Below, piece after piece: positions 1 to 15,101 of a DNA stretch of 64,000 nt; the first letter of the stretch is position 1; every line of letters begins with the position of its first letter. The DNA lies in assembly GCA_963725785.1 (NCBI GenBank), contig CAVRZV010000011.1, positions 165,956-229,955 of the forward strand, read 5' to 3'. The position numbers were made by a program, and so were the translations under genes. The DNA is from an uncultured Bacteroidales bacterium. Lineage in GTDB: Bacteria; Bacteroidota; Bacteroidia; Bacteroidales; VadinHA17. The notes under the pieces were generated by a model that saw only the letters and a list, made by a program, of their open reading frames with translations, had not been told where the DNA came from and made no database searches.

Positions 1-3000
1 AGTATAAATACTACAGGACTTGTGACAGCTATTTCAAATGGAACCGTTACGGCAGTTGCTACTGCTTCTGACGCTTCGGGAGTTACTGGTACATTTGCTA
101 TTACTATTAACACCAATTTAATTCCGGTTAGTTATATAACTGTTTTGGGAGCCGGTGGTATCTCTACTATTACCTCAAACCAAGGATCACTTCAGTTAAG
201 TGAAAGTGTATCACCAGCAAATGCAACTGATAATACTGTAATGTGGACCCTCATTAATGGTACCGGACGAGCTACTATCAATTCTTCTGGTCTTGTTACC
301 GCTATTGACAATGGGACAGTAACTGCCAGGGCAACGGCTAATGATGGCTCAGGTATTTTTGGAAATCTTATTATTACTATTTCCAATCAGACCATATTGG
401 TGACAAGTATTAATATCAGCGGATCAGGAGGAGCAACTTCCATAACTACTGATGACGGAACTCTTCAACTTATAGCAACTGTGTTACCCGCAGATGCTGA
501 TATAAATTCTGTGACATGGTCAATAGTCAATGGGACCGGACAGGCTACAATTAGTTCCGGGGGCCTTGTTACTGCCATTGATAACGGAACTGTCCTGGCT
601 GCTGCAACAGCTAATGATGGCTCAGGTGTTTACGGGAGCATGGTTCTTAACCTTTATAACCAGATAATACATGTAACTAATATTTCTGTAAGCGGAACTG
701 GAGGAGTAACTACTATATCTTCTGATAACGGAACTCTTCAGCTTAGTGCAGCAGTATTGCCTGTGAATTCTACTGATAATTCTGTGATATGGTCAATAGT
801 TAACTCAACCGGACATGCTATAATCAGTTCTACAGGTCTCGTGACCGCCATCGACAATGGTACGGTCACGGCCATAGCAACGGCAAATGATGGTTCAGGA
901 ATATCAGGAACCCTTGATATTATTATTTCCAATCAATTGGTGCCGGTAACTGCAATTACCGTCAGAGGAGCAGGAAGCGCAACTACAATCACTACTGATA
1001 ACGGATCGCTTCAATTGAGTGCAGAGTTATTGCCTGTAAATGCTACGGATCAATCGGTAACATGGTCATTGATAAGTGGTACTTCACTTGCCGGCATCAG
1101 TACTACCGGACTGGTGACTGCTATTGATAACGGCACAATTACAGCCCGGGCAACTGCTAATGATGGATCTGGTGTTTATGGCACTCTTGTAATTACTATT
1201 ACCAATCAGATTATTTCTGTTACCGGTATAACTGTTACCGGGTCAGGCGGCAGAACAACAATTACAAATGATAACGGAACACTTCAGCTGTTTGCATCAG
1301 TGGTGCCATCCAATGCAAGTAATAAAGCAGTAACATGGTCGATTGTGAGTGGCGTCGGACTGGCTTCAATAAATTCAAGCGGGCGCGTAACAGCTCTTGA
1401 TAACGGATCCGTTACAGCCAGAGCGACAGCCAGAGACGGCTCCGGTGTTTCCGGAAACCTCATAATTACTATTTCCAATCAAATAATACCAGTGACTTCA
1501 ATAACTGTTACCGGTGCCGGTGGTGGAACTACAATCTCAACCGATAACGGGTCTCTTCAGTTAACTGCAGCAGTGTTGCCTGTCAATTCTACAGATAAAG
1601 CTTATACATGGTCAATAGTAAATGGAACAGGACACGCTACAATTAATTCCACTGGTCTGGTAACAGCTTCGGATAATGGTATTGTTACTGCCAGGGCTAC
1701 TGCAAATGATGGCTCAGGCATTCATGGTGACCTGTTAATAACTATTTCAAACCAGATTGTTCCCGTAACAGGTATCTCGATTACAGGATCAGGAGGGGCA
1801 ACCATTATCGCTACAAATGATGGCACGCTTCAGCTTAGTGCAGTAGTAATACCGGCTAACGCGACGGATAAAACTGTGACCTGGTCTTTGACAAATGGCA
1901 ACGGGCAGGCTGTCATCAATTCCACAGGACTTGTTTCCGCAATTGATAATGGTACCGTTACAGCAACTGCCACAGCTAACGATGGATCAGGAGTATATGC
2001 CTCACTGATAATAGATATATTTAACCAGGTAATACCGGTAACCGGCATTACTGTTACCGGTTCAGGCGGAGTATCTGCCATTAATGTCAATAATGGAACA
2101 CTTCAGATGAGTGCAACGGTTTTGCCGGCAAATGCAAGTGATAAAACCATAACATGGACTTTGGTAAATGGAACTGGCCTGGCTATTCTTAATGCTTCCG
2201 GTTTTATAACAGCAATCAATAATGGATCTGTTACAGTCAGGGCATCAGCTAATGATGGATCTGGCGTCTTTGGAGACAGGGTAATCAATATTTCGAATCA
2301 GATAGGACCTGTAACGTCAATCACTGTATCAGGAGCAGGTGGCGAGACTTCCATTACCACTAATAAGGGATCTCTTCAGCTTAGTGCCGCGGTATTCCCT
2401 GCGAATACTGCTATTCAAACTGTTTCGTGGTCATTTGTCAGTGGCACAGGACTGGCTACCATAAATGCAACTGGTCTTTTATCAGCAATTGATAATGGAA
2501 CTGTTACAGTCAGAGCAACAGCTAATGATGGTTCAGGTGTTTATGGTACCATTGTTATCACAATTTCCAACCAGATAATTCAGGTAACAGGTATAAGTGT
2601 TACCAGTGCAGGTGGAACTAACTATATCGCAACTGATAATGGAACCCTTCAACTAACTGCTGCTGTATTTCCGGCAAGTGCCGCAAATAAATCAGTGACA
2701 TGGTCCATAATCCCGGGTTCCGGACAAGCCACTGTAAGTAACACTGGCCTTGTCACGGCTGTTGACAATGGTACTGTCACGGCAATGGCTACTGCAAATG
2801 ACGGATCGGGAGTTTATGGTGCCATGGGCATCTATATTTCTGCACAGATAACACCTGTATCGGCCATCAGTGTCAGGGGAGCAGACGGGACAACAGCTAT
2901 AACTGATGCTAATGTTTCCCTGCAGTTAATTGCAACTGTTATGCCGGAAAATGCCACAGTCAGCAGTGTTACATGGTCGTTAGTAAAAGGCAGGGAACTG

Positions 3001-3354
3001 GCTGCTATCGATTCTACCGGGCTGGTCACGGCTTTTAATAACGGTACTGTTACGGTTAAGGCTGCAGCCAATGATGGATCAGGAGTGTACGGATCAATCG
3101 TTATTCCAATATTTATAGAAGATTTCGATCTAACCTTTTCGGCTGTTACACGTGATGAATTAAAAATAAAACTAAACAATAACTATATATCCTGGAAAGC
3201 CGGGCTGTATAGTATTCAGGGTAGTTTGTTACTTAGCAAGCTTGTCAATAGTGATGTACTTGTTTTTGATATCTCATCACTTCATTCAGGTTTATATATT
3301 GTCGTTTTATCAAAAGGGAAAAATATAAGAATGGCAAAAGTAATTAAACCATAA
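1..3354 (+). CDS. Large Ig-like (Big_2-type) repeat surface protein with C-terminal T9SS sorting domain; 5' end lies outside the window
   Basis: Frame 1 is open from base 1 (SINTTGLVTA...). About 12 repeats of ~91 aa (273 bp), each containing VTWS...GLVTAIDNGTVTAxATANDGSG. The C-terminus (LYSIQG...FDISSLHSGLYIVVL...KVIKP) resembles a T9SS type A CTD. Confidence 0.85.
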   Translation, partial: SINTTGLVTAISNGTVTAVATASDASGVTGTFAITINTNLIPVSYITVLGAGGISTITSNQGSLQLSESVSPANATDNTVMWTLINGTGRATINSSGLVTAIDNGTVTARATANDGSGIFGNLIITISNQTILVTSINISGSGGATSITTDDGTLQLIATVLPADADINSVTWSIVNGTGQATISSGGLVTAIDNGTVLAAATANDGSGVYGSMVLNLYNQIIHVTNISVSGTGGVTTISSDNGTLQLSAAVLPVNSTDNSVIWSIVNSTGHAIISSTGLVTAIDNGTVTAIATANDGSGISGTLDIIISNQLVPVTAITVRGAGSATTITTDNGSLQLSAELLPVNATDQSVTWSLISGTSLAGISTTGLVTAIDNGTITARATANDGSGVYGTLVITITNQIISVTGITVTGSGGRTTITNDNGTLQLFASVVPSNASNKAVTWSIVSGVGLASINSSGRVTALDNGSVTARATARDGSGVSGNLIITISNQIIPVTSITVTGAGGGTTISTDNGSLQLTAAVLPVNSTDKAYTWSIVNGTGHATINSTGLVTASDNGIVTARATANDGSGIHGDLLITISNQIVPVTGISITGSGGATIIATNDGTLQLSAVVIPANATDKTVTWSLTNGNGQAVINSTGLVSAIDNGTVTATATANDGSGVYASLIIDIFNQVIPVTGITVTGSGGVSAINVNNGTLQMSATVLPANASDKTITWTLVNGTGLAILNASGFITAINNGSVTVRASANDGSGVFGDRVINISNQIGPVTSITVSGAGGETSITTNKGSLQLSAAVFPANTAIQTVSWSFVSGTGLATINATGLLSAIDNGTVTVRATANDGSGVYGTIVITISNQIIQVTGISVTSAGGTNYIATDNGTLQLTAAVFPASAANKSVTWSIIPGSGQATVSNTGLVTAVDNGTVTAMATANDGSGVYGAMGIYISAQITPVSAISVRGADGTTAITDANVSLQLIATVMPENATVSSVTWSLVKGRELAAIDSTGLVTAFNNGTVTVKAAANDGSGVYGSIVIPIFIEDFDLTFSAVTRDELKIKLNNNYISWKAGLYSIQGSLLLSKLVNSDVLVFDISSLHSGLYIVVLSKGKNIRMAKVIKP

Positions 3355-3375: not shown

Positions 3376-4800
3376 TTAAACTTCTTTAAGCTTCCACTTC
3401 CCTCTTCTGAACACAAGCCAGGCTATAAGAGTCATTAAAGATTCTGCTACTACTATTGCAATAAAGACTCCTTCTTCATTGAAACCTGCTTTTATCGCCA
3501 GTAACCATGCCAGAGGAATTTCAACGCACCAAAAAGCAAAAATATTTATTTTCAAAGGTGTAGATGTATCACCTGCTCCATTGAAAGAATTCACCAGTAC
3601 CATACCGAGACCATACGCTACGAAACCAATACTTACGATCCGAAGGCCAAGTACACCTGCCTTTACAACTGCTTCATCACTTATAAATATCCGTATAAAA
3701 ACTTCCGGAAAAAGTACAAGGAAAATACCTATGGTACCGAGCAATATCATATTTATCCATCCTGTTACCCATACAGCTCTTTCAGCTCTTTCCGGTTTTT
3801 TTGCACCAAGGTTTTGTCCAACAAGAGTTGAAGCAGCATTGCTAATTCCCCATGATGGTAAGATTGTAAATCCGATTATCCTCATAGCAATTGTATAGCC
3901 GGCCACAACTTCACTTCCAAACATAGAAATAATCCTGACAAGTGCTATCCAGCTTGTTGTTCCGATAAGGTTCTGTCCAATGCTGCCAATTGATAACCTG
4001 AGCAATTTCAACATAATTTTGAAATCAATTTCAAGGTGTTTAATTGAAAGTCTGATACGTTTTTTTCCGAAAAACAGAAGATAGAACTGAACAAGAACGG
4101 CAGTCCCTCTGCCAATAGTTGTTGCAACAGCCGCCCCGGTTACTCCCAGATGTGGAAATGGTCCAAGACCAAAAATCAGACATGGATCCAATAAAATATT
4201 TATGATATTCCCGATCCATAGCACCTTCATTGCAAGTGCTGCATCTCCGGCACTTCTGAAAATTGCATTTATGATAAACAGCATCATAATAACTATATTA
4301 CCACCAAGCATAATGGTCGTATACCCGGACATAGTTTTTACAATTGGTTGTGAGGCTCCCATCATACTCAGAAGTTTCTCAGAGAAAAGTGCACCTGGTA
4401 TTCCTATTAACAATGAAACTACTATACCGGTGAGAATTGCCTGAAAAGCTGCAACGGATGCTGCATCAGGATTCTTTTCGCCGATTCTTCTGGAAACCAG
4501 TGACGTTGTTGCAGTTCCCAGACCAATAGAAATAGCATAGATGATAGTCAACATCGATTCGGTAATACCAACTGTGGCAACAGCATTGGCTCCAAGTTTG
4601 GAAACAAAGAAAATATCAACGATTACAAAAATTGATTCCATAACCATTTCCAGAACAGCAGGGATAGATAGTAAAAGAATTGCCCGGCTCAGGGTTCCCT
4701 CCGTATAATCCTGCTCAGTGCCGGAGATAGCTTCGGAAATACTGTTGAAGAAAGACTTTATTTTTCTGTGGATATTTATATTTGTATGTTCAGAATTCAT
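3376..4800 (-). CDS. MATE family efflux transporter
   Basis: 474 aa, about 12 hydrophobic segments, two-fold internal repeat, MATE-like motifs (VDIFFVSKLG, RSAGD, NIILDPCLIFG, GQNLGA). Confidence 0.92.
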   Translation of the reverse strand: MNSEHTNINIHRKIKSFFNSISEAISGTEQDYTEGTLSRAILLLSIPAVLEMVMESIFVIVDIFFVSKLGANAVATVGITESMLTIIYAISIGLGTATTSLVSRRIGEKNPDAASVAAFQAILTGIVVSLLIGIPGALFSEKLLSMMGASQPIVKTMSGYTTIMLGGNIVIMMLFIINAIFRSAGDAALAMKVLWIGNIINILLDPCLIFGLGPFPHLGVTGAAVATTIGRGTAVLVQFYLLFFGKKRIRLSIKHLEIDFKIMLKLLRLSIGSIGQNLIGTTSWIALVRIISMFGSEVVAGYTIAMRIIGFTILPSWGISNAASTLVGQNLGAKKPERAERAVWVTGWINMILLGTIGIFLVLFPEVFIRIFISDEAVVKAGVLGLRIVSIGFVAYGLGMVLVNSFNGAGDTSTPLKINIFAFWCVEIPLAWLLAIKAGFNEEGVFIAIVVAESLMTLIAWLVFRRGKWKLKEV

Positions 4801-5292
4801 ATTATAAGCTGCAAATATTATTTACGCGAAAACGCAACATTTATTAATAATCATCGTTAGAGTGAATATTTTTAATTTAAGATCAGGACGCAAAAGTATT
4901 TTAAATTAATTTCTCTGAGAAATTCCGGTACGATTATTGAGAGTACGCAATACTTAATTTTAATATATAAAAGACAACTTTGCAAATAAATGAGTATATG
5001 GTTTCTAAAGTGATTCGAAAAAACAAGATCAAAAAAGTACCAGATAATAAGATGGTTCCTTTCAGAAATCTATTTGGTATAAAACATTGTATAACAGCGT
5101 TTTAATGCTAGTATATACTACGTGCAGAAAATCGATTGTTAATAAAATGCCAATAGTGTTAATATTTCTGATGGTCGAATGATACATTGTATTTATAGAT
5201 TATATACTTTCGTGACTAATTATTTAAAATAAACATTACTAATTTAAAACAAACAAACTAAAAAGAAAAGGTGAAAAATTTCATCATCTGTT

Positions 5293-6534
5293 ATGAACGC
5301 TAACAATAATGAGGCTACGACGCTCCACGGAGAGAGTCGCCTCGTGGGTTGCTCTTCTGATGAAGAGCCTGGCGCGAAAACCACGATTTTTTCGCAAAAC
5401 GAAATCCCAATTCCGTTAGTTAGCAACCGAAGTTCGGAGTTCATGCACCGCTACTTCCCCCTAACGACTATCGACTCCTGGAATGATTGGAAATGGCAAC
5501 TTCGGAATGCAATCACAAGCATCGAAGATCTAAAGAAAATCATGAAATTATCCGACAAGGAGATTATGGCTATTAATAACCTTAAAGGCCGTTTACCGCT
5601 CCGGATCACACCCTATTTTGCTTCACTAATTTACAACAGTAAACCGTCGCATCCTTTGAGGCGGAATGTAATTCCCGTTGTAGAAGAATTGATTGAATCA
5701 AGTAGTGAACAATCGGATCCTCTGCACGAGAAATCGTTCTCACCTGTTAAGGGAATTGTTCACAGATACCCCGACAGGGTTTTGTTTACAGTAACACAGG
5801 TCTGTTCAAATTATTGCAGGTACTGTACACGCTCGCATTCCGTCGGGAGACTTGACAAACTGGGCCGACAGGATTTTGAAAAGGCTTTTAATTATATTGC
5901 AGGCCATAAAGAAGTACGAGATGTACTTATTAGCGGGGGCGATCCACTCACTTTAAATGATGAGACTCTCGACTATATACTTTCAAATATCCGTAGTATT
6001 GAGCATGTTGAAATTATAAGGATAGGAACCAGAATTCCCGTGGTTCTTCCGCAGCGAATTACTGATAATCTGATAATTATTCTTAAAAAATATCATCCTC
6101 TTTTTATCAGCCTGCATTTTTCACATCCTGATGAAATTACGGATGAATGTGCAAAAGCATGCAATAAACTGGCCGATGGAGGATTCCCTCTCGGAAGCCA
6201 GACAGTTCTTCTTAAAGGTATTAATGATAATGTACCTACTATGAAGGAGCTTATGCATAAATTGCTGAAGATAAGGGTCAGACCCTATTATCTTTATCAA
6301 TGTGATTTAATACCAGGATCAGGGCATTTCAGAACGACCGTCAAAAAAGGTCTTGAAATTATAAAAGGACTACGAGGTTTCACAAGTGGTTATGCAGTAC
6401 CTACATTTGTTGTGGATGCTCCCGGTGGCGGAGGAAAAATTCCTTTACTCCCAAACTACGTTGTAGATCATAATGAAGAGCGGATAGTATTGCGCAACTA
6501 CAAAGGTGTATTATGCGAGTATCCTGAAAAATAA
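5293..6534 (+). CDS. KamA-family radical SAM protein (lysine 2,3-aminomutase-like)
   Basis: HRYPDRVLF, CSNYCRYC (CxxxCxxC), SGGDPL, YQCD, and VDAPGGGGKIP containing the PLP lysine. Confidence 0.9.
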   Translation: MNANNNEATTLHGESRLVGCSSDEEPGAKTTIFSQNEIPIPLVSNRSSEFMHRYFPLTTIDSWNDWKWQLRNAITSIEDLKKIMKLSDKEIMAINNLKGRLPLRITPYFASLIYNSKPSHPLRRNVIPVVEELIESSSEQSDPLHEKSFSPVKGIVHRYPDRVLFTVTQVCSNYCRYCTRSHSVGRLDKLGRQDFEKAFNYIAGHKEVRDVLISGGDPLTLNDETLDYILSNIRSIEHVEIIRIGTRIPVVLPQRITDNLIIILKKYHPLFISLHFSHPDEITDECAKACNKLADGGFPLGSQTVLLKGINDNVPTMKELMHKLLKIRVRPYYLYQCDLIPGSGHFRTTVKKGLEIIKGLRGFTSGYAVPTFVVDAPGGGGKIPLLPNYVVDHNEERIVLRNYKGVLCEYPEK

Positions 6535-6543
6535 GGTTTATAA

Positions 6544-7512
6544 ATGAAAATTGGTTTAACGTATGATCTTCGGTCATGGTATACTGACCGCGGATATTCC
6601 ATGGATGAAACAGCCGAATTTGACAAGCAGGAAACAGTCGATGCCCTTGAAAATTCACTAAAACAGATGGGCCATGAAACTGAACCTGTAGGAAATGTTT
6701 TTCAGTTAATCGAAGCTCTTGCCCACGGGAAAAAATGGGATATCGTTTTTAATATTGCTGAAGGATTGTATGGTGATGGCAGAGAATCTGTTGTTCCTGC
6801 CATTCTCGACCAATACAAAATACCGTATGTTTTTAGCGGTCCGGTGATAATGGGATTATCTCTGAATAAGCACCTTGCAAAACTTGTAGTTGCAGCTTCA
6901 GGAGTACCGGTAAGCCCGGGTTACCTGATAACCGATTTTAAAGATCTGGAAAAATGTAATCTCAATTATCCTCTTTTTGTTAAACCAGTATCTGAAGGAA
7001 CAGGTAAAGGAATTACCGATAAAAGTCTTGTTAATAATCCTGCTGAGCTATCGAAAATGGTTAAATGGATTCTCCATGAATTCCGTCAACCTGCTCTTGT
7101 AGAAGAGTATTTACCAGGGAGGGAATTCACAGTGGGAATTGTAGGATATGGAGATGAAGCTCAAGCAATAGGCGGGATGGAAGTAATGACGATCAATAAT
7201 CTGCCCTATTCAGTTGAAGTAAAAGAAAATTATCAGAATTATTGTACATATAAACCTCTTGATGCAGATATTATCGACGAATGCAAAACGGTCGCTCTCG
7301 GCGCCTGGAAAGCATTGGATGCAGTCGATGCCGGAAGAGTTGATCTGAAAGCCGACCGCTTTGGAAAGATTTGTTTTATTGAAGCAAATCCGTTAGCCGG
7401 ACTTAACCCTGTTCATTCTGACCTTCCAATTCTATCTCGCATGTATGGTATTGAATACCAAACATTAATGGAGATGATAATGAAAGCAGCCATCAAGAGG
7501 ATCAAGGGGTAA
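6544..7512 (+). CDS. ATP-grasp ligase, D-Ala-D-Ala ligase-like (copy 1)
   Basis: FNIAEG, PLFVKPVSEGTGKGI, LVEEYLPGREFTVG, GRVD, IEANPLAG. Lacks the canonical Ddl N-terminal GGxSxEH motif. Confidence 0.85.
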   Translation: MKIGLTYDLRSWYTDRGYSMDETAEFDKQETVDALENSLKQMGHETEPVGNVFQLIEALAHGKKWDIVFNIAEGLYGDGRESVVPAILDQYKIPYVFSGPVIMGLSLNKHLAKLVVAASGVPVSPGYLITDFKDLEKCNLNYPLFVKPVSEGTGKGITDKSLVNNPAELSKMVKWILHEFRQPALVEEYLPGREFTVGIVGYGDEAQAIGGMEVMTINNLPYSVEVKENYQNYCTYKPLDADIIDECKTVALGAWKALDAVDAGRVDLKADRFGKICFIEANPLAGLNPVHSDLPILSRMYGIEYQTLMEMIMKAAIKRIKG

Positions 7513-7554
7513 AAAGCTTATAGAATGTGTTTTAAAAGTTAGAGTCGAGTAATT

Positions 7555-8518
7555 ATGAGGAGATGTTGTATTATTTATAATGAACCGGGTAAAAGCGCTT
7601 TAGCTGATGAACTTGATGTACTTGACCAGGTAGCTCATATCGAAAAACACCTTATTGATCTGGGAATTAAAGTCTTATAGGAAAGGTATTACTGATCAAT
7701 TTATGACTGAGATGGCAGCTCTGGCAAAAGATAAGCCTGATTTTGTTTTTAACCTTGTTGAATCTATCAATAATAAAGGGGAACTCATCTATTTTGTACC
7801 GGCTCTTCTGAATTTGTACGCCCTTCCTTACTCGGGGAATTCGCTGGAATCGATATTTCTGACAAGCAATAAGACAATATGCAGTAAAATGATGAAGAAT
7901 GCGGGAATAAAAAATCCCGGATCATACCTTCCTTCCCAATTTAAGCTTCTTGAAAATGGGAAAAAGTATATTGTTAAACCTATATGGGAGGATGGTTCCC
8001 TTGGAATTAATAGCGAATCAGTATTTGAGTGCAAAAATGGGTTTGAAGAAAAACTAAAAGGTTTGGATGATGCTCATTGGTTTATTGAAGACTTTATTGA
8101 CGGCAGGGAATTTAATATAAGTGTTTTAGCCAAAAAAGACGGTCCTGAGGTTTTGCCTCCGGCTGAGATAGTATTTGTGAACTACGATGCCGACAGACCA
8201 AAGATCATCGATTTTAAAGCAAAATGGGAAATGGACAGTTTTGAATACATAAATACTGTCCGGGAATTTCCAGGTAACAAACTGAACAGCCGTTTATTGT
8301 CAAACCTGAAAAATGCAGCATTATCCTGCTGGAAACTATTTGATTTAAAGGGTTATGCAAGAGTTGATGTCAGAACTGATAACAACGATAATGTTTATGT
8401 AATTGAGATAAATGGCAATCCGTGTATTTCCCCCGACGGTGGATTTGTTGCTGCAACCAGAGAAGCAGGATATCCCTTCACAGAGGTTTTACAGAGGATC
8501 ATTGATGATCTTAATTAG
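7555..8518 (+). CDS. ATP-grasp ligase, D-Ala-D-Ala ligase-like (copy 2), with a +1 indel near 7675
   Basis: ATG at 7555 gives MRRCCIIYNEP...DLGIKV, then the frame shifts to YRKGITDQ...FNLVES...IVKPIWEDGSLGI...EDFIDGREFN...GYARVD...IEINGNP. Confidence 0.8.
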
Positions 8519-8533
8519 TGATTAAAACAGTAA

Positions 8534-8902
8534 ATGAAAGGTCTATATACAGTACTGCTGCTTGTAATGTCAAATACATTCATGACAGTTGCCTGGTATG
8601 GTCATCTTAAGTTAAGGACATTGAGCAGGTTTGAGAACCTGAGTCTGCTTGCAGTGATTCTGCTTAGCTGGGGGGTAGCTTTTTTTGAGTACTCTCTTCA
8701 GGTACCCGCCAACAGAATTGGTTTCCAGGGAAACGGGGGACCATTCTCTCTGATCGAGTTAAAAGTTATTCAGGAAGTTATTTCAATTTTAGTATTCACG
8801 GGATTTACACTCATCGTTTTTAAAAACGAGCATTTCCGCTTAAACCATCTGATCGGATTTGTGTTTCTGATCCTCGCGGTATTTTTTATTTTTAAAAAAT
8901 AG
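8534..8902 (+). CDS. Small DMT-family membrane protein (DUF486-like)
   Basis: 122 aa, four hydrophobic segments, SNxFMTxAWYGHLK, FEYxLQVPANRIG and LKVIQEVI motifs. Confidence 0.85.
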   Translation: MKGLYTVLLLVMSNTFMTVAWYGHLKLRTLSRFENLSLLAVILLSWGVAFFEYSLQVPANRIGFQGNGGPFSLIELKVIQEVISILVFTGFTLIVFKNEHFRLNHLIGFVFLILAVFFIFKK

Positions 8903-8905
8903 ACC

Positions 8906-9355
8906 CTATTTTATAAGGTTAGCATTGTAATATCGAGGATTATAAGTTACTTCCTCGCCCAGCCAATCGGGCTTTGCAAATTGTTCATCATCTGAAACAA
9001 GTTCTATTTCTGCAATTATCAACCCTTCATTTTTTTCATGAAATACATCAACCTCAAATACGTGTCTTTCGTATGGGATCAAATATCTTGTTTTAACTAT
9101 TCTGCCTGGCAGACACATCTGCATCATCTCTTCAGCATCCTTAACCGGAATCTGTAATTCCCATTCATTCCGTGTAATAGAGTTCTTCCCGGGTCTGCCT
9201 TTTATTGTCAGATATGCTTTTTCATCAGCGATCCTTAGACGGATTGTTTTATCGGGATCTATTGACAGATAAGATTGAATAATCTTTATTTCTTTCGCTG
9301 CCATATGCAGGAACTCCCCTTTTACCAGAAATTTTCGTTCTGTTTCTGTAGCCAT
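8906..9355 (-). CDS. CYTH domain protein
   Basis: N-terminal ETERKFLV (ExExK), RLRI, FEVDVF, AEIEL, WLGEEVT. Confidence 0.9.
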   Translation of the reverse strand: MATETERKFLVKGEFLHMAAKEIKIIQSYLSIDPDKTIRLRIADEKAYLTIKGRPGKNSITRNEWELQIPVKDAEEMMQMCLPGRIVKTRYLIPYERHVFEVDVFHEKNEGLIIAEIELVSDDEQFAKPDWLGEEVTYNPRYYNANLIK

Positions 9356-11778: not shown

Positions 11779-13066
11779 TATTTAATTGTCTGTCGATCAT
11801 AGTATTAATGTTTACCGGATTAAAATCGATATAAAATAACATCCGGTCAAAAAATTCTCCGGTTAAAAATATGGAAATTGTAATAATATCAGTGATTGGG
11901 TTATGCGAAATCAGCCTGAGCCCGGTAACAATCAGGAAAGCCATCCGGAGGAACCTGATTTCAAAATTTGAACTCTTTCTTTTAAGAATCAGATTATGAA
12001 GTGAGGTTCCTAATTTAACTATTGCTATAAAGATAAACGGCAGAATAATTCCTGAAAAAAAAGAAGCAATCAGAATCGCACTCAAAAAAGTCTGACCGCT
12101 ATGCAGTGTAACTGATTTCCTCTTGTCGGCAAAAATGTATACACTATCAATTGCAATGAGCAGACACAAACCTGCTACCGAGGTCGCAATAAGTAGACCT
12201 GGCAGTTGAAAAATAAGTGTAATAGTGCAAAGTGCCAAATAGATAATAAAGAATACTATCTCGCGGCTCAAAGGGGAGTAACTGAAATTTACAACTGCCC
12301 GCAACGATCTGGCCGGTTTGCCAAGGTGAAAGAATGATATCAATGCTGATAGAGAGTTTACCAGTAAAAAAACTGTTCTTTCCGGGTATACACCCATTAT
12401 AAAAGAGGAGATTACAATTGCCACTGACAATGTGGATAAAAAGCTGAATAGAATCAGGCTCAATTCACCTGAAATGCTTTTTCCGGGTACGACAGACCTG
12501 GCAATTTCAGTTTTATTAATATTCTCCGGAATTATTCTTAAAGGATTAGAGCTCTGTCCGGACAAAAATTCAATCGCAGGATTAAGGTTCTTATTTGGAA
12601 ACCACGGATAGGATGCTTCTGAATCAGAGCGCGAAAGTTGTCCAAACTTCAGAGCGCCTGTAGGACATGAAGATGAACATGCCGGCGGCTGACCAGCTTT
12701 TAATCTATTATAACACAGATTACATTTTGTTATTATTTTTTTTTCACGATCGTATTTTGGGGCATCATATGGACAGTTCCACTGACAATATCTGCATCCA
12801 ATACACTTATTCTCATCAAGTACTATAGCTCCTGTAATCAAGTCACGTTTATATGCGGAAGAAGGACAACCATCCATACAAACCGCTGATTCACAATGAT
12901 TACAGGCTAACGTAATATTGATCAGAACTAATGAGGATTCAGCTTCGGAATTATAAGTATAGATGGTTCTTGGACTTACAGCCCAGCCGTTTTCAAGAAT
13001 ACAGGCTGCACTGCAGGCTTTACAGCTCACACATTTATTATGATCAAAAATAAATCCTTCGCGCAT
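11750..13066 (-). CDS. Fusion of a DmsB-like 4Fe-4S ferredoxin and a DmsC-like membrane anchor
   Basis: Four Cys clusters (CVSCKACSAAC, CNHCESAVCMDGCP, CIGCRYCQWNCP, CNLC...CSSSCP), then multiple TM helices with FFHLGKP...SPLSREI (DmsC-like). Confidence 0.85.
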   Translation of the reverse strand: MREGFIFDHNKCVSCKACSAACILENGWAVSPRTIYTYNSEAESSLVLINITLACNHCESAVCMDGCPSSAYKRDLITGAIVLDENKCIGCRYCQWNCPYDAPKYDREKKIITKCNLCYNRLKAGQPPACSSSCPTGALKFGQLSRSDSEASYPWFPNKNLNPAIEFLSGQSSNPLRIIPENINKTEIARSVVPGKSISGELSLILFSFLSTLSVAIVISSFIMGVYPERTVFLLVNSLSALISFFHLGKPARSLRAVVNFSYSPLSREIVFFIIYLALCTITLIFQLPGLLIATSVAGLCLLIAIDSVYIFADKRKSVTLHSGQTFLSAILIASFFSGIILPFIFIAIVKLGTSLHNLILKRKSSNFEIRFLRMAFLIVTGLRLISHNPITDIITISIFLTGEFFDRMLFYIDFNPVNINTMIDRQLNIERDEKKRG

Positions 13067-15101
13067 TATTCATCAAATCTAATAACCTCAACCCTGTTAT
13101 CGTGAAATGCTGCACCAAATCCAATGTCAGTTTCAGTTTCTGCAATAAGATGATTTCCTCCTCCACCTTCATTGAACCATAACCCATTCGGAAGAACAAC
13201 CAGTCCGGGAGCAATCCTGTTCGATATATTTACTTTACTTATTATTGCCCCGGTTTTGTTGAATACTTTTACTTTCTGACCAGTAGTTATATTTCGTTCC
13301 CTGGCATCCTCAGGAGATATTCCCACTGCCGGTTCAACACTTGTCTCCCTGATTATTCCCAGATTGCCAAACTGGGAGTGGATTCTGCTACCTGTATTCG
13401 GAGTGATAAATACCAAACGGAACATTTCCTTATCAGGAGCATAACCAACCGGTGTAAAATCAGGCAACGGCGAAATGCCCCATTTCTCCTCAGCTTCATT
13501 TGAATATAGTTCAATTTTGCCTGAGGGCGTTTCAAATTTCAGATCCTCAAAGGCAATCATCTGAAGTCCGGGAGCAAGTACAGGGCCAGCTTTAAGTTCG
13601 CCAAGAGTAAGCTCAGAATAGCCTTTGATCCTTTTTTCCAGCCATTTCTCGATATTTAAGTTGCCGGGTTCAGGTACTAAATCATAGCTGATATTCAGAT
13701 CCAACCTTTTACCGATATGGTAATAGATTTCACTCTCAGGAAGAACATCGCCAGGAGATCGGATCACTTTTGGTTTGAATTGTATGTATGGAGACCAGTA
13801 TGATCCGATTATATCAGACTGCTCAAACATATCTTTCGCCGGAAGAATAATATCCGCCAGTGCTGCAGTATCTGTCATGAATTGTTCAACGACGACTTTA
13901 AACTCAAGTGCAGAAAACGCTTTCTTAACACTATTTGTATCAGGCGATTGTAATACCGGATTGCCTCTTTCAATCCAGACCGCTTTCAGCTCAGGATTGA
14001 CCATATTTGACATATCCGACCCAAGTCTCGCCATGGATACTGACTTACGGAAGGGTATATCATGTTCATTATCCGGATAATATGATAACGGTTCTTTGAT
14101 ATCATCAAAAATATAGCTCTGCAGGTTGGCATAATTAAATCCTGAACCGGGTTTTCCGATATTTCCTGTCAGAACTGATAACAAAAGTATGGATCTGATT
14201 GTTTGCCCACCGTTCCAGTGTCGTTGCAAACCATAACCCGGGAGTATTGTTAAGGGCCCTTACTTCCTATTATACCGGCAAGTTCGATTATGTTTTCAGA
14301 AGGAATACCTGTAATTAATTCAGCATCATCCGGTGAAATATGTAATGATTTCTGAATTCATCAAATCCTTTTACATAATTTCTGATGAATTCATGATCAA
14401 TCATATCTTTGTTAATAAGTACGGAAGCAATAGCCAGAGCAAGCGCTCCATCTGTTCCAGGTTTAGGACTGAATAGAATATCAGCTTTATCAGCTGTTGG
14501 AGTTCGCAAGGGATCAATGACTATTACCGGCAACCTTTTTCTTTGGCTCAGGCAATAAATGCAATCTCCTGTATATTTGTTTCTGCCGGATTTTTGCCCC
14601 ATATAATTATTGTTTTAGCGTTTTCAAGATCCCAGGGAACATTATGCTTCACTGATCCCAGGGTCAGTCTCACAGCTTCAAGTCCTGCCGGCCAGCAAAG
14701 ATTTCCATAGGTTGTTGTTGCCCCACCGAATGCTTTCCAGAATGAATATCCGATTTCATTGGTAAGTCCTGACATTCCGCTTCCCTTGTACCAGAGATAT
14801 ACTGTGTGGACCATATTTTTCTCTTATTGTCCCAAGTCTGTTGCTTATAATATCCAGAGCCTCATCATTATGTAGATTTGCTTAAAATTTCCGATTTGAG
14901 GTTCTGATCAGAGGATAAATTATTCGGTCCGGGGAGTTGTGTTCTTTCGAGGTAAGATAACCTTTTATGCAGGGTCCTTCAGGGAGTTGCCAGATTTCCT
15001 GAATATGGAAGAATCCTCCTGATTTTATTATTTTCAACCTGAACCCTGAAAGAACATGTACTATAGCAGTTTCTGGGGCAAGCAGTTATGAATTCTTCCA
15101 T
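13066..15101 (-). CDS. Molybdopterin (DMSO reductase superfamily) oxidoreductase catalytic subunit, broken by several indels
   Basis: ATG at 15101 gives MEEFITACPRNCYSTC...GPCIKG (FeS motif). Fragments TYGNLCWPAG, IIIWGKNPAETN, VIDPLRTPTA, PKPGTDGALAL, ADIILPA and HSQFGN follow in shifting frames. No twin-arginine signal. Confidence 0.82.

Follow-up and report, generated by a model that had tools for sequence, protein, structure and literature searches.

Positions 5293–8902 of a 64,000-nt stretch of DNA from an uncultured Bacteroidales bacterium (VadinHA17; assembly GCA_963725785.1, contig CAVRZV010000011.1, positions 165,956–229,955; the whole stretch is called the window) carry four plus-strand genes, which encode a homologue of the aminomutase KamA, two ATP-grasp ligases and a small membrane protein of the DMT_6 family. 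We propose, with moderate confidence, that they represent a conserved and apparently undescribed beta-lysine two-ligase cassette which would make a small beta-lysine-containing amide; this was the best explanation of the full set of data. Such an amide is the best reading of the product because the KamA homologue appears to be of the lysine type, the ligases are not D-Ala-D-Ala ligases of the cell wall (Ddl), and the genes are conserved and fused together. An earlier note on this DNA had reported four co-directional genes with short gaps. Coordinates, strand and gaps (9, 42 and 15 nt) agreed with the list of open reading frames (ORFs); the third gene, however, is not a single ORF and is split by a frameshift.

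The first gene (5293–6534, 413 aa) encodes a KamA-family radical SAM/pyridoxal phosphate (PLP) aminomutase, predicted to be an L-lysine 2,3-aminomutase, and is the sole KamA of the genome. It passed the KamA subfamily model TIGR00238 with 373 bits (cut-off 199) and failed the EpmB model (258 bits, cut-off 369). The highest score, 503 bits, was obtained with the AblA equivalog model TIGR03820, of which positions 3–360 of 417 were covered; this is below the cut-off of 525.4. In an alignment with the Clostridium lysine 2,3-aminomutase (LAM; PDB 2A5H) the segment CSNYCRYC matched C125, C129 and C132, i.e. the CxxxCxxC motif is present, and Arg134 (in CTR), Asp293 (in YQCD), Asp330 and the PLP-binding Lys337 (both in VVDAPGGGGK) are kept. 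This bore out the earlier note, which had recognised the radical SAM triad, the PLP lysine and the Asp of VDAPG from the letters. The residues of the lysine and PLP sites were invariant over 36 cassette KamAs. In LAM, Asp293 and Asp330 are reported to bind the epsilon-ammonium group of the substrate. That both are kept here argues for lysine as the substrate. The Zn ligand C268 is replaced by Asn, and the protein stops at LAM residue 368 and thus is devoid of the C-terminal Cys cluster of the Zn site and of the oligomerisation domain at this end. Within the genus the KamAs are 85–96% identical; the AlphaFold2 (AF2) model had a pTM of 0.80. Taken as a whole the protein looks like a lysine 2,3-aminomutase which would serve neither lysine fermentation nor EF-P nor AblB.

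Ligase 1 (6544–7512, 322 aa), a Ddl-fold ATP-grasp amide ligase, starts 9 nt downstream of kamA and ligase 2 (7555–8518) follows after another 42 nt. Both matched the Dala_Dala_lig_C domain (80 and 70 bits, respectively). Against a Ddl cut-off of 243 bits ligase 1 reached 127 bits with the best model and ligase 2 reached 95 bits. The genome possesses a bona fide Ddl at C8:123927–124898 which scored 353, 280 and 278 bits, above the cut-offs of three Ddl models. This supports the view that ligases 1 and 2 are not the cell-wall enzymes. Among solved structures the sequences of both ligases matched Ddl only. The model of a ligase-1 orthologue superposed on all three Ddl domains (TM 0.84) and the top 50 fold matches were all Ddl. 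When Ddl and the two ligases were aligned together, the residues corresponding to Ddl Glu15, K97, K144, E187, K215, R255, D257, E270 and N272 were invariant in both ligase families, and the HMMER alignments agreed on the catalytic residues. Since these residues and Glu15 are invariant, both proteins should be active amide ligases, using a carboxylate donor with a nearby ammonium group. The GGxS loop of Ddl is absent from both. Here the earlier note, which had both ligases without the canonical N-terminal motif of Ddl, was right about the loop; yet the Glu15 equivalent is invariant and the ligase-1 model extends over all three domains.

The acceptor pockets differ. In ligase 1 the equivalents of G276, H280 and S281 are kept and the position of L282 is an invariant Asp, which tentatively would favour (beta-)lysine or a similar acceptor that bears both a carboxylate and a positively charged side chain. 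The corresponding loop of ligase 2 is rebuilt as NPCISPDGG, and the equivalents of G276, S281 and L282 are all gone; with the carboxylate-binding Ser lost, its acceptor is probably a different one, likewise a tentative assignment. Compared with Ddl and VanA, the cassette ligases share the three-domain ATP-grasp fold, the ATP/Mg and catalytic residues and the Glu15 equivalent, whereas they fall below the family cut-offs with about half the score or less, lack the GGxS loop, have a changed acceptor pocket and are encoded by KamA-linked genes. Two further types of protein turned up beside the ligases. P0261 of the representative library (980 aa, apparently eukaryotic in style) has a leucine-rich-repeat N-terminus fused to a ligase-1-like domain (40% identity). 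A sister family of about 650–720 aa (P0130, P0141, P0142, P0159 and others) has two tandem ligase-1-like domains of the NLKR...EAEFD type and is distinct from the ligase1–ligase2 fusions described next.

The trio kamA, ligase 1 and ligase 2 is present in 23 of the 24 genomes of the genus, at the same site between MATE and CYTH/ung; one of these 23 copies (G022) is visibly decaying. Of the order's 16 other families, three have the trio as well. When species genomes were scanned, one for each species, at least 581 relatives of ligase 1 came up. The best 80 of these loci had an intact trio in essentially all cases, and the ligases were not separated from KamA. An exhaustive profile-free search returned 542 clusters (50% identity) at E≤1e-30. 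Natural fusions followed the gene order: KamA–ligase1 (P0152), ligase1–ligase2 (P0123–P0127), ligase2–GNAT (L122) and a GNAT-like–HDAC protein. Because the trio is fixed and all consecutive pairs occur fused, conservation and fusions are strong evidence for one pathway. The earlier note had stated that similar KamA/double-Ddl clusters exist elsewhere and had suggested an analysis of genome neighbourhoods. The genus, order and species-wide scans confirmed the statement, and the neighbourhoods revealed genes which are conserved together and fused in some lineages. According to the record labels the hosts are Bacteroidota, Deltaproteobacteria, Bacteriovoracaceae and others, mostly uncultured and largely from anoxic sources. 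The record titles name fen, lake sediment, digesters and groundwater, mostly of low salt. At one locus (L083, 5–2725) genes for a RimK/Ddl-like ATP-grasp protein, a GCS2-type carboxylate-amine ligase and an N-formylglutamate amidohydrolase-family protein lie directly 5' of the kamA cassette; they may be a second amidoligase set functionally linked to it. A published description of the cassette was not found, though there may be an earlier computational mention; in the literature searched, the papers with both 'aminomutase' and 'ATP-grasp' did not deal with this system.

The proposed pathway would start with the conversion of L-lysine to beta-lysine by the KamA homologue, as suggested by the complete conservation of its active site. 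Each ligase would then turn a carboxylate into an acyl phosphate and use it to make a single amide bond, with a small beta-lysine peptide or conjugate as the result. In the last step a small GNAT may N-acetylate an amine of the product. The usual fourth gene of the cassette codes for such a GNAT of about 160 aa and is found at most loci; the cassette GNATs did not match the AblB model TIGR03827. In the window a GNAT of the cassette type is absent. A homologue is encoded at C10:423574–424053 (44% identity, E=1e-32) and here would act in trans. Within the genus the GNAT is located in the cassette in 12 genomes and is exclusively unlinked in 11, this one included; no genome has both and one has neither. 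Because the two locations of the GNAT complement each other strictly, the window cassette is, judged by this distribution, GNAT-in-trans and not GNAT-less. The relocated gene (L117, 6572–7054, minus strand) lies beside two genes, one for an M1-like peptidase and one for a 969-aa protein whose C-terminal domain is an M28 peptidase. As a pathway member the 969-aa protein was rejected; G006 and G040 do not have its gene next to the GNAT, and none of the cassette loci contains it.

About ten loci (L082, L083, L084, L086, L088, L091, L093, L096, L101) have a gene of 580–590 codons between kamA and ligase 1. The product combines a weak GNAT-like N-terminal domain with a domain of the HDAC/acetylpolyamine-amidohydrolase type (PF00850, about 250 bits). 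In these distant cassettes the amidohydrolase suggests a cycle of acetylation and deacetylation. The last gene of the window cassette, 15 nt downstream of ligase 2, encodes DMT_6 (DUF486; 8534–8902, plus strand), a half-size DMT membrane protein of 122 aa with four helices which matched PF04342 over its full length (140 bits, cut-off 25). About ten congeners have the gene next to the cassette, where in some cases it overlaps the stop codon of the GNAT; G004 and L013 have an intact cassette in the order KamA–ligase1–ligase2–GNAT–DMT_6. In G008, G018 and G023 the DMT_6 gene is a stop-ridden remnant, and the remaining congeners and the two closest contigs (L011 and L012) do not have it. Thus, about half of the congeners lack the gene or have it in decayed form; it is restricted to a clade and present in families which have no cassette. 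A literature search for DUF486 returned only false matches to DUF4861 and DUF4867. The earlier note had a beta-amino acid ligated and then exported. A beta-lysine amide remains the best reading of the first half. The second half is not supported: because DMT_6 is confined to a clade, is often decayed or absent and occurs without the cassette, an exporter does not appear to be integral to the system, and DMT_6 would be an optional, co-transcribed and dispensable membrane partner in this clade. The di- or tripeptide envisaged there as an osmolyte, wall modifier or metabolite is pure conjecture.

Several points weigh against a functional beta-lysine amide pathway. The chemistry of the cassette is entirely deduced from residues and gene linkage. 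KamA stays just below the cut-off of the AblA equivalog model and lacks the Zn ligand and the C-terminal domain. The mostly low-salt sources weaken the idea of an osmolyte. Selection on the full pathway appears not to be uniform because ligase 2 is frameshifted here, the cassette in G022 decays, and GNAT and DMT_6 were repeatedly lost or moved. Last, a motif conserved in the N-terminal tail of KamA, described below, suggests that a peptide, and not only free amino acids, might be a substrate of the ligases.

A related use of beta-lysine is the N-epsilon-acetyl-beta-lysine pathway of AblA and AblB in methanogens and in certain bacteria (Pflueger et al., 2003, cited after PMC3543383). In a Pelobacter genome paper plain ablAB only is described. 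In another family of the same order a canonical ablA–ablB pair followed by a sodium:solute symporter was located (G034; L023, 2492–6360); its 286-aa GNAT scored 290 bits with the AblB model TIGR03827 (cut-off 205). The cassette resembles this system in having a KamA-type aminomutase closest to the AblA model together with a GNAT, outside of fermentation and EF-P modification. It differs by the two Ddl-derived ligases between aminomutase and GNAT, by a GNAT of about 160 aa which does not match AblB, and by a KamA with an acidic-proline tail and no C-terminal domain; its product needs at least one extra amide bond. In two other genomes (G026, G027) KamA adjoins a MutS-like gene and was read as the lysine-fermentation type.

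The earlier note had seen no kamDE, no epmA and no AblB-type acetyltransferase in the window. For two of these the statement can be extended to the whole genome: no AblB homologue was found, and no protein exceeded the EpmA cut-off of 287 bits. The best match to the EpmA model (229 bits) was a 587-aa open frame, taken to be lysyl-tRNA synthetase. For kamDE the genome was searched by tblastn with the two genes which flank the second KamA of L110, one of which we presume to be Kdd; no homologue was detected, the MutS-like query retrieved only generic MutS matches, and the KamD and KamE models were not searched. The GNAT in trans had escaped the earlier note.

We then come to the state of the cassette in this particular genome. 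The 964 nt at 7555–8518 encode ligase 2 in two frames. The N-terminal part starts at ATG 7555, runs for 41 codons (MRRCCIIYNEPGK...GIKVL) and ends at the in-frame TAG 7678–7680 (7555–7680, plus strand). The body continues in the next frame (+1) at 7676–8518, plus strand, within a mechanical ORF of 287 aa (7655–8518) which comprises the ATP-grasp and the acceptor loop NPCISPDGG. An alignment of the DNA with three congeners (G020, G010, G007) placed a single extra base at 7674/7675, where the window reads GTC-T-TAT and the congeners GTT-TAT; there is no homopolymer. Ligase 2 is a single frame of 318–333 aa (with intact relatives of 319–323 aa among them) in more than 20 congeners, in two metagenome contigs of about 87% DNA identity and in nearly all of 80 further loci; among the copies examined it was split in two other assemblies only. 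When public metagenome contigs were scanned for the exact sequence of each allele at 7674/7675, no match was obtained. A programmed frameshift was rejected: the relatives all have one frame and the UUA-UAG context would bar a +1 re-pairing slip.

Frame breaks in the assembly are clustered. A gene for the catalytic subunit of a molybdopterin oxidoreductase (13066–15101, minus strand) lies in at least three frames here and is one 677-aa ORF in the 87%-identical contig L011; it is either a pseudogene or the assembly is locally poor. Nine neighbouring genes (about 11 kb), yet, are intact and the coding density of the assembly is normal. In-frame stops were present in two of 42 ABC domains of the genome, the ATPase domains at C7:20081–20527 (one in-frame TGA) and C11:11787–12233 (two), which are possible pseudogenes or assembly errors. 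The split of ligase 2 may with about equal probability be a true lesion of recent origin or an error of the consensus, so that the local cassette is either inactive beyond ligase 1 or mis-assembled. A related question is whether the whole cassette of this genome is a decaying, non-functional remnant in which the frameshift is real and no final product is made. We consider this a serious alternative with a chance somewhat below even. An insertion of one nucleotide outside a homopolymer, the broken oxidoreductase gene nearby and the interrupted ABC domains fit such a reading; in addition, G022 demonstrates that the cassette can decay, and the GNAT has left the operon. On the other hand, the genes for KamA, ligase 1 and DMT_6 have no lesion and show high conservation, the lesion in ligase 2 is the only one in a gene otherwise 86–88% identical to intact orthologues, and nine neighbouring genes (about 11 kb) are intact. 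Moreover, consensus errors in metagenome-assembled genomes can create single-base insertions of this kind at strain-variable codons.

The cassette has a further feature which bears on how its ligases may operate. All 60 full-length cassette KamAs sampled have an N-terminal extension of 60–100 residues with an acid-Pro-[Pro/Gly/Leu] motif about 20–30 residues from the start. In the window the motif is SSDEEPGAK (kamA codons 21–29; 5353–5379, plus strand); elsewhere PEEPPS, DDEPPS, GQEPPSG or DAEVPLV are found. A single Glu (Glu25) is nearly invariant in the otherwise unalignable linker. The strict pattern was present in 54 of the 60 tails and in 3% of shuffled tails. KamAs outside the cassette, i.e. 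of the AblA type or linked to MutS, do not have such a tail. According to AF2, residues 1–39 of KamA are disordered and not docked on KamA (pLDDT of the motif 32–39). The motif is missing in the high-GC cassettes L127 and L128, with at most a trace in L129, hence it is not universal.

In L102 and in L106/L103 a deletion has left only a 5' remnant of the cassette kamA; a KamA without the tail, encoded elsewhere in the genome, can supply beta-lysine. The remnants retain a block of ten codons, (E/D)FSE(D/E)(D/E)EPPS, which still aligns with the intact relative L104. The block has seven variable columns, each the third position of a codon; six are substitutions and one is a gap in the alignment. 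The sequence 3' of the block has decayed to 24–48% identity, and the flanking genes have 80–85% protein identity. By this pattern the motif appears to be under selection at the protein level in KamA-less cassettes. Retention of the 5' end of kamA could partly reflect the needs of promoter and start codon. The selection test on the motif is new here. In L080, an independent deletion, the tail is fused in frame to ligase 1 and there is no alternative start between the tail ATG and the ligase core. A third case, the tail–ligase fusion of L121/P0149, was weakened by a possible internal GTG start and a GC content of 76%, at which open frames are cheap. Stand-alone tail peptide genes in L102 and L106 were rejected; these are the 5' remnants of deleted kamA genes.

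In the proposed pathway the tail motif probably recruits or activates the ligases. More specifically, it might be a peptide handle for both Ddl-fold ligases, either as a leader-like docking and activating element or as a covalent Glu acceptor for a beta-lysine adduct; we advance this tentatively and regard it as rather unlikely. Less likely still, indeed improbable, is a peptide-directed ligation in which the tail with Glu25 would serve as covalent acceptor or carrier: as in LysW/LysX, RimK or TTLL, one ligase would add beta-lysine to a carboxylate of the tail, the other would extend it, and the product would be assembled on the protein or remain there. The cassette-specificity of the motif, absent from the AblA-type and MutS-linked KamAs, the disordered and undocked tail, the third-position changes in KamA-less cassettes whose remnant otherwise decays, and the fusion in L080 are all in agreement with this; the HDAC-type amidohydrolase of about ten cassettes could cleave an N-acyl-lysine bond. 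However, the nearest solved relatives of the ligases are all Ddl enzymes with small-molecule substrates, and both ligases keep the Glu for a substrate ammonium, which the side chain of a peptide Glu does not have. The core cassette contains no conserved release hydrolase, and L127, L128 and L129 manage with a missing or weak motif. AF2 prediction of the tail with ligase 1 resulted in a disordered tail without docking, a weak negative. Finally, where the cassette has no KamA, the supply depends on a tail-less KamA encoded elsewhere in the genome, which requires free diffusion of beta-lysine.

Two known systems invite comparison with the tail. As in LysW/LysX of Thermus and Sulfolobus, an ATP-grasp ligase is tied to a short acidic peptide segment, kept here when the host domain is lost; the concept of an amino-acid derivative built on a Glu carboxylate is shared as well. 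Unlike LysW/LysX, the cassette has no Zn-ribbon carrier, no C-terminal EDWGE and no LysK-type release enzyme; the motif is inside an N-terminal tail and not universal, and the ligases belong to the Ddl clade and not to LysX/RimK. In graspetides a motif of the leader peptide binds and activates the ligases. The microviridin type (MdnA–E) likewise has two ATP-grasp ligases, a GNAT and a transporter, and L080 would be the counterpart of a leader–ligase fusion. The cassette, by contrast, lacks a core precursor with Thr/Ser/Lys and Asp/Glu, its motif-bearing mini-ORFs are kamA remnants, and its constant partner is an enzyme forming beta-lysine. Among the PDB sequence and fold matches of the ligases no graspetide ligase was found; all were Ddl.

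That the cassette beta-lysylates a cellular protein such as EF-P, with the ATP-grasp ligases in place of EpmA, is very improbable: beta-lysine is a modifier of EF-P in gamma-proteobacteria and the role of the missing EpmA would be vacant here, but KamA is far below the EpmB cut-off (258 versus 369 bits), two ligases with GNAT, HDAC and DMT_6 better fit small-amine chemistry, and the cassette is patchy in the order (three of 16 other families) and decays in G022. With EpmA/EpmB the cassette shares a KamA-family enzyme which feeds beta-lysine into a dedicated ligation; it differs in the absence of EpmA, in a KamA outside the EpmB type and in the fold of the ligases.

The surroundings of the cassette are as follows. 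The 165 nt 5' of kamA are conserved in the genus. Two TGTTAATA direct repeats (5137–5144 and 5157–5164, plus strand, 20 nt apart, region 5137–5166) were invariant columns in an alignment of 12 genomes and are a candidate regulator-binding site. A genus-conserved -7-like box of the Bacteroidetes type, TACTTTCG, is located at 5205–5212 (plus strand); it has one mismatch to TAnnTTTG, which we take to be the Bacteroidetes consensus, and may be a promoter element. A riboswitch or leader RNA 5' of kamA was rejected since no Rfam family matched the leader at E≤1 and the genus alignment displayed promoter-like conservation only. The MATE transporter gene (3376–4800, minus strand) is the divergent flank of the kamA locus; at the other end a CYTH gene (8906–9355, convergent) is followed by ung. 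At 1–3354 the window encodes a Big_2 repeat protein of more than 1100 aa which is 1.5–2 times longer in close relatives. In L011 and L012 the precomputed Pfam calls for its equivalents include a weak C-terminal match to Por_Secre_tail, the sorting signal of type IX secretion.

Databases annotate the cassette ligases as cell-wall D-Ala-D-Ala ligases. Identification of the product would correct this widespread mis-annotation and would add a new beta-lysine metabolite, maybe a solute, a polyamine-like cation or a protein tag. Should the tail be a peptide handle, Ddl-family ligases would for the first time be seen to depend on a protein-borne peptide, and work on the motif might uncover a new mode of ATP-grasp ligation that is guided by a peptide or uses a carrier. 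Hundreds of species keep the cassette, and its product would extend the known chemistry of the Ddl fold.

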